A DNA stretch of 64,000 bases from Prolixibacteraceae bacterium (GCA_963677405.1 OY781961.1:2253123-2317122); one strand, 5' to 3'. Positions 1 to 3,229 are shown, counted from the first letter of the stretch. Program-made: numbers and translations. The notes: generated by a model from the letters alone, not told the origin.

Positions 1-1
1 T

Positions 2-1087
2 GGCAACTACAACATTTGCTACACTATAACCTACCAGAAATATCGTAAATGATAACCGGTCAAAGATTTTGGCAAGACCAAGCTTCGAGTCATCTTCAGC
101 AACTTTCATGACAATAATGGAACACAACACACTCAGGAAAATGGTAACCATTCCCAAAATATTGATCAAATCGCTTAGCGTAAGTATTCCTATTCCAGGA
201 AGTTCGGTAGTGGTTACATAGCTACTTGCTACCGCAGCAAAGAAAGCTCCAATTCCCAAACCAACTCTTCCATCGCCCTGCGGATTCATAAAAAACACCA
301 AAAGTGCAACGGCTACTGAGGCAAACATCGACTGGAACATTTTAAAATAAAGTCCCCAATCGGGTCGCTTAATTTCCAGACCGTATATCACCTGATCGTA
401 TATAATCATCCGATCCTTCTTGTATCTGGGATCTCCGCGGTTTGTTTTATACGGATGCGGTTTGGTGCTCAAAAATGTGTTGGTTATGGTGTAGTCAGGA
501 AGTATGACCCGTGAACTTACATCGGAAACCTCCCTGTCGGCAACAAACTGCATTTGCTGCCAGGTATATACCTTGTTCTCTACAGGTATTGTTAACATGT
601 GATCGTCGAGCGGGAAACGCATGACATTAAAAAATTTGGTAATTTTTGCGACCACACGATACAACTCATAATGCTCATCATCAGTACTTGTTGAGTCAAC
701 CAAATCGGATGATAGGATCTCGCCATCCATGATCTGAAAAGTATCGCCTGGGTGTATCTTTTTATCTTTCCAGCGAAACCAGATGTAAAAATCGACGGTC
801 CAGTTGGTATTCAACGTCGATAAATCAACGATATGATCGACATACATACCAACAGCAACTTTTGGAGCTTCACTCTTTTGGTTTTTGGCTAAAAGAACCG
901 GGTCGACCCATGTTCTGCCTGCTTCCTGAAAATTTGCATCCAGACTGTATTTATGGTGCTTTTCGGAGCTGATTCTGTCGTTTCTGACAATGGTTGCAGC
1001 TATTATTGTTGCAATTAAATAAAAGGCCACCAGGATAACCGCCCATAAAACAATCGCTTTTCTTTCTTTCAGACTTAAATTGGTCAT
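2..1087 (-). CDS. Pentameric ligand-gated ion channel (Pro-loop receptor) subunit; 3' end lies beyond the window edge; not in the ORF track
   Basis: Hand translation from ATG at 1087 gives 362 uninterrupted codons to position 2. N-terminal TM (AIVLWAVILVAFYLIATIIA); pLGIC extracellular motifs VAVGMYVDHIVDLS, WTVDFYIWFRW and loop-7 RFPLDDH; four TM helices with M2 GRVGLGIGAFFAAVASS and M2-M3 ELPGIGILTLSDL. Confidence 0.88.
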   Translation of the reverse strand, partial: MTNLSLKERKAIVLWAVILVAFYLIATIIAATIVRNDRISSEKHHKYSLDANFQEAGRTWVDPVLLAKNQKSEAPKVAVGMYVDHIVDLSTLNTNWTVDFYIWFRWKDKKIHPGDTFQIMDGEILSSDLVDSTSTDDEHYELYRVVAKITKFFNVMRFPLDDHMLTIPVENKVYTWQQMQFVADREVSDVSSRVILPDYTITNTFLSTKPHPYKTNRGDPRYKKDRMIIYDQVIYGLEIKRPDWGLYFKMFQSMFASVAVALLVFFMNPQGDGRVGLGIGAFFAAVASSYVTTTELPGIGILTLSDLINILGMVTIFLSVLCSIIVMKVAEDDSKLGLAKIFDRLSFTIFLVGYSVANVVVA

Positions 1088-1102
1088 TGTCGAATTCTTT
1101 CT

Positions 1103-3229
1103 TTAATAAAAAGTGATTACTGTTACTCCAAGCGTTAGACCTAGTAATAATGGCCAATAGAGTGTGGAATAAATGGTGCTTTTATACTGATAATACCAGG
1201 TTTCGGTTTGCAATATCCATCCAATGGCATTGAGCACCACGTATAGAATTAGCCCATAGGTGATGAAGAAAAAGTATTCGAGGTAAAATATTTCCTGAGC
1301 CGATATTTTCCCACGGATGTCGATATGGCTGAAAACGATTACGAAGAACATGGCAATGCAGATGTTGAATACCTTGGCGGTATCAATCCGATCCATCAGG
1401 AAAAGCATGAAAAAGAGCATCACCGAAACGATTATGAGCGGCGTCAGGTTCGAGATAAACGCATCAATGAAATTTCGCTGAATTTCGACATCAAAATAAA
1501 GAGCCGGAAAATCATCCTTATCAACGCTACGGGCGATTCCGAAATTTGAATTCAAATCATTGAGGCGAATTTCGTAATAGGAATTTTTCAAATTCCATCC
1601 CGAAATAAATGCAGCTTTATCAATTCCGGGTAATTGTGACGCACTTCTGACTTTGTAGGCATCTAAATCGGGGGTAAGTACAATGTTGTGATTCAGGTCT
1701 TTTTGTATGATTTGTAATTCAATGAGTTCTTCCTCCAACGGGTAGGTCCGGTGCGATAATTTTTGGCGAATTTCGGCACTAAAATGAAACTGAATGATTT
1801 CATCGCCATCCTGAATTGAACTGTTTATCTTTTGAATCGATACGTTTGTGGCTTGTGAAATCGTAAATTCTTTTGCGATGTCTTTCGGGAAATCAGGACC
1901 GTATTTTTGCCAGATGTATCCGGATAAAAACATATCGTTTGGGCCTGAAAATTTCAGTGCGTCAATGTACACTCCGGTCGGAACAAACAAGGGTGGTTCA
2001 AGATGGTATATTTCTGAACGATTTCGCTGATTCGCCAATGTACTTTGCAAAGTTGCTTTGTCAGAAATTTTAATTCCATTTATTTTATCGGCGGGATTAT
2101 AAGTTAGTGCAATGCCCCAAATGAAGCCAATTGCAAGGATAACGAGCATCGAACCGGTAAAAATTATGATCCAACGGTTTCGTACACTGCTTAAAATATA
2201 AGTATAAATACATCCCAAAATGAGGATGAAAAACAGAAGAACCAAAACCACGATTCGGATGAGATTATGCCTGTACTTATCCACATTGATTACAATGTCT
2301 TTTTTTAGAAAAGTATTCTGAAGTGACCAGCGGGTTGATAGGATTGGTGCAAAAACGAGCCATGATTTCTCGTGGGTAGAAGTGCTAACATGATCGATAA
2401 ATCCACCTTCGCCTTTTGTGACCTTTTCGGCCATAACCAACCGGTCAGGATCGTTCTTTTCTTTAGCCACTTCGGTTATTGTTTTTTTTGAAACAACATA
2501 TTCCGAATTTGGATAATACATGTAGACGCCTTTCGACGAAGTCAGCGCTCCAAAGCCACTCGCGCCCAAATCAATGCCCTCAATTATTTTTTTTATGTTG
2601 TCCATCGAAATGTCAACGGTTACAACTCCCAATGGCGTTTTTTTGCCCGTTTCCGAATTGCTATCGTAAAAAACAGAAGAATAGGTAATCATCAGTGTTT
2701 TACCAGCCGAATCCCAGTAAGGTCCTGTCCAGCCACTTCCGTTCGTCATCGGCTGCATGTACCAATCGCTTTTGGTATAATCGTAATCGTCCTCCAGCTT
2801 AACAAATTTGAGTTCCTCTTGATTTCCGCTAATTCTGTGATAATATGGGGCAAACAGTCTTTTTGAAGGATCGTAACCCAAAGGACGGAAACAGATCGTT
2901 GAGCCGTAATAATTGGGGCTTTTTAAAATCAGTGTACTTATTTGATTCAATATCGCCGCTTTTTCGATCTTCCCGTTTGTCAGGTTATTGGCAACATTAT
3001 CAACCTCACTCATCGCCTGCCGCACAATGGTATCAATATCTTTTGTTGCTTTTGTCGTTAATTCTTGCAGGTCAGTTTTTATATTGGCCAATGTTTCCTG
3101 CTGGTATCGAATATGATGAAAGATCGCACCAGTGGCAGCAAAGAAGCTTAAGACTGAGAAAGCAATTAGCATTAATTTAACGACTCTAATTCTTTGGTGA
3201 GGTAAATTCGTTTTTGTCTGATCAGTCAT
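1103..3229 (-). CDS. Cache-domain / pentameric ligand-gated ion channel fusion protein
   Basis: N-terminal TM; Cache-type sensor (LFAPYYHR...YDYTKSDWYMQP...GWTGPYWDSAGKTLMITYS...GVVTVDI); two more TMs; pLGIC ligand-binding domain (FVPTGVYIDAL...LSGYIWQKY...TYPLEEE); four C-terminal TMs (ending LYWPLLLG). Confidence 0.85.
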   Translation of the reverse strand: MTDQTKTNLPHQRIRVVKLMLIAFSVLSFFAATGAIFHHIRYQQETLANIKTDLQELTTKATKDIDTIVRQAMSEVDNVANNLTNGKIEKAAILNQISTLILKSPNYYGSTICFRPLGYDPSKRLFAPYYHRISGNQEELKFVKLEDDYDYTKSDWYMQPMTNGSGWTGPYWDSAGKTLMITYSSVFYDSNSETGKKTPLGVVTVDISMDNIKKIIEGIDLGASGFGALTSSKGVYMYYPNSEYVVSKKTITEVAKEKNDPDRLVMAEKVTKGEGGFIDHVSTSTHEKSWLVFAPILSTRWSLQNTFLKKDIVINVDKYRHNLIRIVVLVLLFFILILGCIYTYILSSVRNRWIIIFTGSMLVILAIGFIWGIALTYNPADKINGIKISDKATLQSTLANQRNRSEIYHLEPPLFVPTGVYIDALKFSGPNDMFLSGYIWQKYGPDFPKDIAKEFTISQATNVSIQKINSSIQDGDEIIQFHFSAEIRQKLSHRTYPLEEELIELQIIQKDLNHNIVLTPDLDAYKVRSASQLPGIDKAAFISGWNLKNSYYEIRLNDLNSNFGIARSVDKDDFPALYFDVEIQRNFIDAFISNLTPLIIVSVMLFFMLFLMDRIDTAKVFNICIAMFFVIVFSHIDIRGKISAQEIFYLEYFFFITYGLILYVVLNAIGWILQTETWYYQYKSTIYSTLYWPLLLGLTLGVTVITFY

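Follow-up and report, generated by a model that had tools for sequence, protein, structure and literature searches.

Two adjacent genes for pentameric ligand-gated ion channel (pLGIC) subunits lie at the edge of a 64,000-nucleotide stretch of a Prolixibacteraceae genome (GCA_963677405.1 OY781961.1:2253123-2317122; hereafter the window), and they raise the question of what two very different channel proteins do side by side at the end of a contractile injection system (eCIS) locus. GLIC, ELIC, sTeLIC and DeCLIC, the structural models of bacterial pLGICs, are all homopentamers, and the physiology of bacterial pLGICs is essentially unknown. The cue to which a producer cell deploys an eCIS is likewise a standing question, and a pLGIC module in eCIS loci ties the two questions together in a testable way. 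An earlier note on this DNA proposed that the two gene products form a heteropentamer. The eCIS context of the pair, which we judged to be the most informative fact about it, was left out of that note.

The downstream gene (ORF B; minus strand, 1087..-10, of which 1..1087 is in the window) encodes a pLGIC subunit of 365 aa, as the earlier note had supposed for a hidden open reading frame running from 1087 to the window edge. In the whole genome, the final three codons and the stop of ORF B were found beyond the window, the ORF ending 10 nt past its edge. A conserved N-terminal helix (TM0, aa 8-36) precedes the extracellular domain (ECD, aa 76-240) and M1-M4 (aa 244-364); in the AF2 model (pLDDT 87.4) the ECD is a beta-sandwich, after which M1-M4 form a bundle of four helices. 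This model matched GLIC with an E of 1.3e-18 and a TM-score of 0.76 (314 aligned columns of 310). ORF B passed the Pfam cut-off for Neur_chan_LBD (28.2 bits against 26) and matched TIGR00860 (LIC) at 1.6e-11; the profile of its family matched a GLIC-GlyR chimera from the ECD through M4 at 5.9e-13. Among eukaryotic sequences, GABA-A beta subunits came closest (E about 7e-5). In the Pro-loop, F158-P159-L160-D161, both P159 and D161 were invariant among 34 sequences, and M2 carries R274 at 0' and F283 at 9'. No proline was found in M1 of ORF B (LYFKMFQSMFASVAVALLVFFM) or in the family consensus. The missing M1 proline is an atypical feature and not a reason for exclusion, because the fold and profile evidence keeps ORF B among the pLGICs; ORF B is a member of the pLGIC superfamily.

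The upstream gene (ORF A; minus strand, 3229..1103) encodes a Cache-fused subunit of 708 aa with seven predicted TM helices, arranged as TM1, a periplasmic dCache domain, a TM2-TM3 hairpin, a pLGIC ECD and M1-M4. The sensor domain (2306..3103, aa 43-308) matched PF22673 at 1e-19 (71.4 bits against a cut-off of 27) and PDB 3lic both by sequence (E 2.7e-12) and by fold (E 2.5e-13, TM 0.80), and is clearly a dCache domain with a double-PDC fold; PF02743 scored 40.7 bits, under its cut-off of 45. In the dCache_1 amino-acid-sensor motif, inspected by eye, the position of the Arg that binds the ligand carboxylate reads S-D-W (Y-D-W in the family consensus), and an amino-acid ligand is therefore unsupported. 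The hairpin (2102..2284, aa 316-376), delimited by hydropathy and by the AF2 helices 316-345 and 349-376, joins the Cache domain to the channel ECD and brings the chain back to the periplasmic side.

The channel module of ORF A (1109..2074, aa 386-707) comprises an N-terminal helix, a beta-sandwich and M1-M4, which AF2 placed at 391-407 (helix), 414-585 (strands) and 587-610, 617-641, 648-673 and 686-707 (helices). The C-terminal half matched none of Neur_chan_LBD, Neur_chan_memb and LIC in Pfam and NCBIfam, even at E <= 1. Its assignment to the pLGICs was made because of profile-profile, profile and AF2 fold comparisons: hhalign aligned it with the ORF B family at 94% probability (E 1.2e-7, 210 columns, beta1 to M2), its profile matched GLIC at 6.6e-6 to 2e-4, and a Foldseek search with the AF2 model aligned it, across about 325 columns, with the entire chains of GLIC and sTeLIC (E about 1e-10), with low TM-scores on the target (0.45-0.52) that are probably due to inter-domain geometry and long loops. 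The Pro-loop is Y496-P497-L498-E499, with P497 invariant in 35 sequences; M1 holds P597 in the motif LTP597LII, in which L595 and T596 are invariant; and M2 has K619 at 0' and F628 at 9'. The C-terminal half of ORF A is thus a complete but very divergent pLGIC module, and the gene that the earlier note had placed at 1103-3229 is a pLGIC gene. The picture of a Cache-bearing and a more canonical subunit drawn there is correct.

The two genes are in the same frame and separated by a spacer of 15 nt (1088..1102, minus strand), the distance the earlier note had given. The junction runs from the last codons of ORF A (...TTT TAT TAA, the stop at 1105-1103) through agaaagaattcgaca to the ATG of ORF B at 1087. 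No terminator-like site was found in the spacer or elsewhere between p370 (the gene upstream of ORF A), ORF A and ORF B; the scans of 1-5700 for sigma-70 promoters and intrinsic terminators were at background level and uninformative, with a tool that does not cover Bacteroidota promoters. One metatranscriptome contig of 166 nt (976-1140) spans the junction and hints weakly at co-expression of the two genes, DNA carry-over being possible.

The two proteins are very divergent members of the superfamily. They share about 18% identity over the aligned region, and profile methods were needed to relate them because BLASTP of one against the other gave no significant similarity. The hhalign comparison showed different insertions in the two ECDs. 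The cytoplasmic loops are very short in both proteins and offer no obvious surface for contact with a cytoplasmic particle. Both M2 helices are unusual in carrying Arg/Lys at 0' and, around 9', an invariant Phe-Phe; acidic residues occupy -1' to -3'. The pore of ORF A is lined by bulky residues (F/L at 2', I/V at 6', F at 9'), that of ORF B by small ones (G at 2', G at 6', A at 13').

The pair is kept together well beyond the window, as a survey of synteny showed. The order A then B was found in 29 of 29 paired loci from two phyla (Prolixibacteraceae and several Gammaproteobacteria), with intergenic distances from -4 to 95 nt (median about 29 nt). ORF B homologs lay directly downstream of A in 17 of 80 A-centred genome loci; among 80 B-centred metagenome loci, those with a close relative of B had A directly upstream. 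In the B tree, a single clade of 35 (SH-aLRT 99) took in every one of the 29 paired proteins, and the paired A proteins likewise grouped in one clade, of 37. The AU test rejected strict monophyly for the paired B proteins, solely because two unpaired and four undetermined sequences nest in the clade of 35. Pairwise identities of A and B were correlated (r = 0.95) with nearly equal means (0.589 and 0.583), and the proteins of Bacteroidota and Gammaproteobacteria pairs were about 41-48% identical. On the evidence of gene order, this adjacency can be taken to show a functional coupling, not in itself co-assembly.

An obligate A/B heteropentamer, with A as the sensor and B as the more canonical pore subunit, would be the first heteromeric pLGIC of a bacterium, and we regard it as doubtful. 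Gene order conserved over such an evolutionary distance often marks physical interaction, and the short gaps and fixed order, the matched divergence, the common unusual M2, the seemingly complementary pore linings and the retention of the M1 proline in A with its absence from B all speak for it. The correlated divergence, however, is expected for any two co-inherited genes, and the low identity and differing ECD insertions make A and B far more divergent than known co-assembling subunits. Each type also occurs without the other. Of the 79 full-length A genes with a Cache domain in the tree, 55, from many phyla, had no paired B, and the A type also lacked B in two eCIS loci (L022 and L024); the B type lacked A in L088, L094 and at least 36 more distant loci; L103 has no Cache-bearing A, its B being accompanied by two A-type genes that lack the Cache domain; and a single canonical pLGIC suffices in related eCIS loci. 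Since A and B types are each found alone, co-assembly is not obligatory for either type. What stands of the heteropentamer proposal is co-inheritance of the pair and a functional coupling; obligate co-occurrence does not stand. The underlying observation survives the refuting conditions of the earlier note on pLGIC membership and on conservation of the pair. Two separate homopentamers acting in the same pathway have a chance just short of even, co-assembly into one pentamer of whatever kind is possible at a lower level of confidence, and an arrangement that is neither of these is unlikely.

The pair closes a complete eCIS locus (about 5566-29013 in the window), standing co-oriented at its cargo-proximal 3' end. 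All genes of the locus given here are on the minus strand. Upstream of ORF A, across a gap of 58 nt, is p370 (3288..4400, 370 aa), which had no match in Pfam; it was called a putative cargo or effector because its N-terminal region cross-matches the eCIS_core protein. Homologs of p370 lie upstream of a pLGIC gene in three other loci (L003, L004 and L169). The eCIS_core protein itself (DUF4157, PF13699; 4436..5326, 296 aa) comes next, and genes of its type adjoin pLGIC genes in nearly all related loci. The p370 and eCIS_core proteins have in common an N-terminal leader of roughly 46 aa. ORF A and ORF B, which are multi-pass membrane proteins and lack this leader, were rejected as loaded cargo. 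Further upstream are a GH18-like protein with C-terminal TM helices (5566..7902, 778 aa) and the structural genes (7893..29013), which include baseplate proteins, three tube proteins, the tape measure (7893-11864), gp25 (19283-19726), a VgrG-like spike (20042-21838), the sheath (23645-25324), a Pvc16-like protein (26379-26951) and an AAA ATPase (27664-29013).

The association with eCIS genes recurs in other genomes. Every one of the 16 paired loci whose upstream flank reached 6 kb or more carried a tape-measure gene, against only 2 (L022 and L024) of about 40 unpaired A loci of equal flank, and at least one eCIS gene was present in 21 of 28 paired loci. The host eCIS lineage can be recognised by its long tape-measure protein together with the GH18-like membrane protein, and its loci lie in genomes of Prolixibacteraceae and of several Gammaproteobacteria. 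Within related loci of this kind, pLGIC genes of at least three kinds occupy the cargo-proximal position, the sets being A alone, A and B with a Cache-less A-type gene, B with two Cache-less genes, or one canonical pLGIC. Among 151 genomes of the family, seven carry a Neur_chan_LBD gene, which is inside an eCIS locus in four (G015, G073, G094 and G120), 4-140 nt past an eCIS_core or cargo-type gene, and has no eCIS linkage in three (G088, G107 and G134). Most A-type and B-type genes elsewhere also have no eCIS linkage, and with so many pLGICs outside eCIS loci there are therefore eCIS-independent channel roles too. The pLGIC genes are not core genes of this eCIS lineage, being absent from some of its loci: in a genome of the same genus (G026), a locus of the same eCIS type ends in housekeeping genes and contains no pLGIC, the second eCIS locus of the window genome has no pLGIC, and a genome-wide search of G139 gave no pLGIC match. 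Of the neighbour clusters compared, the first consists of response-regulator/GGDEF proteins, which are generic and not specifically positioned; the second and third were discarded as conserved neighbours, being antisense open reading frames inside A and B. The literature searched contained no paper linking a pLGIC, Cache domain or ion channel to an eCIS, and no eCIS accessory gene described there is a ligand-gated ion channel or Cache sensor; the literature searches on Cache-fused prokaryotic pLGICs likewise gave nothing. Taken by their genomic position, A and B are an accessory module of the eCIS locus that recurs across taxa.

We propose that the module may couple a periplasmic chemical cue to eCIS deployment, a reading drawn from gene context to which we give an even chance. 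The A/B module would be a periplasm-facing chemoreceptor channel whose pore opens when a small-molecule cue binds the Cache domain, the ECD interfaces or both. The acidic residues at -1' to -3' weakly suggest that the pore is probably permeable to cations, the invariant Phe at 9' being unusual. The resulting ion flux or depolarisation could then control deployment, either through the timing of producer-cell lysis and particle release or through control over assembly and expression. Against this reading speak the very short cytoplasmic loops of both proteins and the loci of the same lineage that have no pLGIC. A broader version, in which a widespread eCIS lineage has pLGIC modules as its chemical trigger, with a channel of two or three subunit types (A, B and a Cache-less C) whose flux times lysis and release, must be considered a long shot. 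If the trigger reading is true, bacterial pLGICs would gain a defined physiological role and eCIS a defined environmental input.

Lysis could also be the direct work of the channel. As a holin-like release device, the A/B pore would collapse the membrane potential and, with the GH18-like membrane protein, cause the lysis that frees the particles. Particles of eCIS are not known to have a dedicated secretion route and several are freed by lysis of the producer; counterparts of the GH18-like gene follow tape-measure or AAA genes in both Prolixibacteraceae and gammaproteobacterial loci, and the protein and pLGIC genes co-occur in both phyla; and no separate holin/endolysin cassette was found among the annotated open reading frames of window positions 1-31800. 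The pores of pLGICs are, however, ion-selective and too narrow for proteins, and we consider a release device improbable.

The module might instead have no functional tie to its host locus, A and B being two independent chemoreceptor channels carried as passengers in the variable end of a horizontally mobile eCIS island. Variable cargo genes are known to gather at the ends of eCIS loci, and the locus is patchy, B being absent from 8 of 8 same-genus genomes and 149 of 151 family genomes. Against this, the association recurs in Bacteroidota and Gammaproteobacteria at the protein identities given above and with three different kinds of pLGIC, and the tape measure separates sufficiently flanked paired loci from unpaired ones; chance carriage is very improbable. 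The pLGIC genes might also not be for sensors at all but serve the neighbouring eCIS_core and p370-type cargo toxins as immunity or partner genes, a reading that is scarcely credible. They do stand where immunity genes usually stand, immediately after eCIS_core or cargo-type genes and in the same orientation (gaps of 4-140 nt in L169, L170, L171 and L175, and of 58 nt in the window). The same pLGIC types, however, follow cargo proteins that are unrelated in their C-terminal domains and in length (296, 341-370, 356, 364, 619 and 647 aa), whereas a specific immunity protein should co-vary with its toxin. In gammaproteobacterial loci the gene order is reversed or interrupted, a 7-TM Cache-bearing channel is implausible as an antidote, and many A-type and B-type genes have no toxin gene anywhere near them.

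The proposed coupling of a chemoreceptor channel to an eCIS can be set beside several known systems. Fusions of Cache domains to pLGICs have been known since 2004 as the MCP-N/Cache-fused ART-LGIC architecture, found in scattered prokaryotes including Bacteroidota ('Cytophaga') and Gammaproteobacteria (Tasneem, Iyer, Jakobsson & Aravind 2004, PMC549065). These authors inferred homopentamers, most genomes having a single member, and the operons they described contain PBP-II or stand-alone Cache genes and none has a second pLGIC or a contractile injection system (PMC549065). With an N-terminal Cache-type sensor and a complete pLGIC (ECD and four TM helices), ORF A is a member of this class; it is unlike the described cases in being paired with a second, very divergent pLGIC inside an eCIS locus. 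In DeCLIC from Desulfofustis (PDB 6v4a), a calcium-modulated homopentamer, a periplasmic N-terminal domain of two jelly-roll lobes is fused directly to the ECD and modulates gating (PMC9897478). The dCache domain of ORF A is instead set apart from the ECD by the TM hairpin, so that the sensor is tethered through the membrane. ORF B weakly matched the DeCLIC TMD (E 5e-4), and DeCLIC has no known partner subunit or eCIS context.

GLIC, ELIC and sTeLIC have the same fold as ORF B and the C-terminal half of ORF A, both of which keep the Pro-loop proline. Unlike A and B, they are single-gene channels without an eCIS context and have no extra TM helix before the ECD, where B has TM0 and A has TM3, and ORF B differs from them further in lacking the M1 proline. 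Canonical pLGICs have Leu at 9', whereas Phe is invariant there in both the A and B families. Both families have a 5-TM core with the extra TM0 helix and Phe at 9', to which A adds the Cache domain tethered through its hairpin, and even as independent homopentamers they would give biophysics two pLGIC families that are new and very divergent. Like the accessory and regulatory genes of Afp/PVC/MAC/AlgoCIS-type eCIS, A and B are co-oriented at the cargo end beside eCIS_core (DUF4157), where they make up a conserved, horizontally co-transferred module. The animal heteromeric Cys-loop receptors (nicotinic, GABA-A and GlyR alpha-beta) use several subunit genes per module, and A and B may do likewise; co-assembling animal subunits are far more alike than A and B, which lack the Cys-loop cysteines and are paired in an operonic arrangement. 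For the question of whether heteromeric pLGICs exist outside eukaryotes, no better candidates are available than the conserved A/B and A/B/C gene sets.

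The two adjacent pentameric ligand-gated ion channel (pLGIC) genes described in the earlier note were confirmed by their open reading frames, profile matches and folds. ORF A (window 3229..1103, minus strand) encodes a Cache-fused subunit of 708 aa, and ORF B, just 3' of A on the same strand, starts at 1087 and runs past the window edge. The window is G000:C1:2253123-2317122 in its own genome (G000), where a whole-genome check placed the end of B 10 nt beyond the edge, so only 3 residues of the 365-aa protein are cut off; the gene after B is convergent. The A/B junction consists of TAA, 15 nt and ATG, with both ORFs in the same frame, and no terminator-like site was detected between A, B and the gene for a 370-aa putative cargo protein (p370; window 3288-4400, minus strand). 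A 166-nt wastewater metatranscriptome contig spans 976-1140, across the A-B junction, without mismatch, which weakly suggests co-transcription because DNA carry-over is possible.

The dCache domain of A was unambiguous (aa 43-308; PF22673, 1e-19; PDB 3lic), bearing out the Cache-type sensor expected of this subunit. Curated pLGIC models (Pfam, NCBIfam) did not match the C-terminal half of A, and BLASTP found no similarity between A and B. In its AF2 model (pLDDT 78.6), A runs from TM1 through the dCache domain and a TM2-TM3 hairpin to an N-terminal helix, then a beta-sandwich and finally four helices, and Foldseek matched the N-terminal half to Cache sensors. Three results place the C-terminal half in the pLGIC superfamily: an alignment of 35 A homologs matched one of 34 B homologs (94% probability, E 1.2e-7) with the register kept from beta1 to M2, the profile of the A channel module alone matched GLIC (6.6e-6), and Foldseek aligned it with GLIC and sTeLIC chains over their full length, at E about 1e-10 across some 325 columns.

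B was recognized directly as a pLGIC, as had been predicted, by Neur_chan_LBD (Pfam; 28.2 bits, cut-off 26) and by TIGR00860 (1.6e-11). Its PDB matches include GABA-A beta subunits, DeCLIC and sTeLIC, and the B family profile matched a GLIC-GlyR chimera from the ECD to M4 (5.9e-13). The AF2 model of B (pLDDT 87.4, pTM 0.78) superposed on GLIC with an E of 1.3e-18 and a TM score of 0.76. B (window 1-1087) also has a long extra N-terminal helix, aa 6-49, holding a hydrophobic TM0 that is probably kept in the mature protein, given the conserved residues (W15) in the helix. The Pro-loop reads Y496-P497-L-E in A and F158-P159-L-D161 in B, and the M1 proline is P597 in A and lacking in B. With M2 positions of both proteins assigned from a register taken from profile alignments, the putative 0' and 9' residues are K/R619 and F628 in A and R274 and F283 in B, the latter position lying in an invariant Phe-Phe pair (628/629 and 282/283); the other pore-facing positions are bulky in A (F/L at 2', I/V at 6') and small in B (G at 2', G at 6', A at 13').

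The A-B pair ends the gene cluster of a phage-tail-like extracellular contractile injection system (eCIS). The same-strand ORFs upstream of A-B form a complete eCIS locus, in the order AAA ATPase, Pvc16-like protein, sheath, three tube proteins, VgrG-like spike, gp25, baseplate proteins, a 1323-aa CIS tape-measure protein, a GH18-like membrane protein, a 296-aa eCIS_core (DUF4157) protein (window 4436-5326, minus strand), p370, A and B. The GH18-like protein (window 5566-7902) carries C-terminal TM helices and recurs as cluster 6 in L006, L007, L009, L013, L022-L024 and other compared loci, and in L163-L171. In every examined locus of this eCIS lineage, its gene lies directly 3' of the tape-measure gene (Prolixibacteraceae) or the AAA gene (Gammaproteobacteria), and the protein appears to be a membrane component that defines the lineage. 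The p370 and eCIS_core proteins (window 3288-5326) match each other in phmmer (E about 1e-6 to 1e-7) and have otherwise unrelated domains, consistent with a common N-terminal leader. The 239-nt gap between the GH18-like and eCIS_core genes, the only sizeable one in the cargo-end gene run, contains an inverted repeat, ACTCACCCC and GGGGTGAGT, about 60 nt apart (window 5431-5516, minus strand), possibly a regulatory or REP-like element. The genome also has a second eCIS locus near 3.92 Mb (G000:C1:3913157-3936984), likewise complete but of another type, whose tape measure is short (about 500 aa). Neither that locus nor the rest of G000 contains pLGIC genes beyond A-B, and no further A or B paralogs were found in the genome.

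Conservation of the pair was evident from a genome scan with the A alignment as query and one genome per species. The query matched 80 loci from many phyla; B was directly downstream in 17, all from Prolixibacteraceae and Gammaproteobacteria (including Chromatiaceae and Thiotrichaceae), and A was alone in the rest. In a metagenome scan with the B alignment, close B relatives had A directly upstream and distant B-type genes stood alone. The expected synteny, A then B, is conserved across two phyla, with a gap of -4 to 95 nt (median about 29 nt, n = 24). Paired A sequences fall within one clade of 37, made up of a Bacteroidota and a Gammaproteobacteria branch, and all 29 paired B proteins within one clade of 35 (SH-aLRT 99).

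Paired loci are closely associated with eCIS genes. A tape-measure gene was present in all 16 paired loci having at least 6 kb upstream of A, and at least one eCIS gene in 21 of 28; in the other loci the flank upstream of A is shorter than 1 kb. Of the roughly 40 loci with unpaired A and similar flank, only L022 and L024 carried the tape-measure gene. In Gammaproteobacteria the genes run p976-like, tape measure, AAA, GH18-like membrane protein, (TPR membrane protein), A, B, (methyltransferase-like), (Cache-less A-type gene, C) and eCIS_core. The TPR protein (about 483 aa), which combines TM segments with TPR repeats, is encoded 25-50 nt 5' of A in many of these loci (L009:8483-9904, L015:2203-3654, L023:8484-9950 and nine more) and is absent from the window. 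The C-type genes (a third pLGIC type, about 380-394 aa), which encode an A-type channel module without the Cache domain, form their own well-supported clade and occur in the gammaproteobacterial eCIS loci L006:8574-13189, L009:9929-15120, L013, L015, L016, L093, L098, L099 and L103; in L006, C, A and B lie back to back. Types A, B and C all have a TM helix directly before the ECD (A: aa 349-376, window 2102-2182), giving a 5-TM core as opposed to the canonical cleaved signal peptide plus four TM helices. Unpaired A-type genes also lie near an eCIS_core (DUF4157) gene in a Cellvibrionaceae MAG (L060:8037-12370) and a Desulfocapsaceae MAG (L032), with no structural eCIS genes within 10 kb, and DUF4157-pLGIC adjacency may extend past complete eCIS loci.

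Among 151 genomes of the window's family, B was found only in G000 and as one distant match, and a tape-measure homolog in 51. The long-tape-measure, GH18-like eCIS type is present in six besides G000, four of which (G015, G073, G094 and G120) carry just one canonical pLGIC gene (Neur_chan_LBD matches of about 1e-18 to 1e-23) 4-140 nt past the eCIS_core or p370-type gene, where A-B sits in G000. In G015, a close p370 homolog (E 1.9e-142) is encoded 5' of this gene (L169:6086-7111). The eCIS locus of G026, of the same genus, has no pLGIC, and three other pLGICs in the family lack an eCIS link. At least three kinds of pLGIC therefore turn up repeatedly at the cargo end in this eCIS lineage, though they are neither universal in it nor exclusive to it. 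The best-supported reading of A-B is a ligand-gated channel module with a functional tie to one eCIS lineage.

Whether the two subunits share a pentamer, as the earlier note suggested, is a separate question. The fixed order, tight spacing and conservation across phyla favor co-assembly, as do the odd M2 common to both proteins and their matched divergence (r = 0.95 between A and B pairwise identities over 25 loci, with equal means); the correlation shows that the two genes are inherited as one unit, as linked genes should be, and is in itself no evidence of contact. Against an obligate heteromer, the eCIS loci L022 and L024 have A without B, L088 and L094 have B without A, in L103 B lies between two C-type genes without Cache-A, related eCIS loci hold just one canonical pLGIC, lone genes of either type are abundant, and A-B identity is only about 18%. 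The conserved order of the pair stood, but co-occurrence of A and B is demonstrably not obligatory. An A-B heteromer is plausible but unproven, and we lean against it.

The eCIS-tied channel module, judged by its gene context, might give chemosensory control of eCIS deployment. Full-text searches found no literature linking contractile injection systems to ligand-gated channels, Neur_chan_LBD, Cache domains or ion channels, and no earlier description appears to exist of a conserved pLGIC module with several subunits that accompanies an eCIS. The A and B proteins themselves are new representatives of known kinds. MCP-N/Cache-fused pLGICs were described in 2004, and bacterial pLGICs were argued to be homopentamers on the ground that most genomes carry a single member (PMC549065); DeCLIC is presented in PMC9897478 as the sole family member with an NTD whose structure has been solved.
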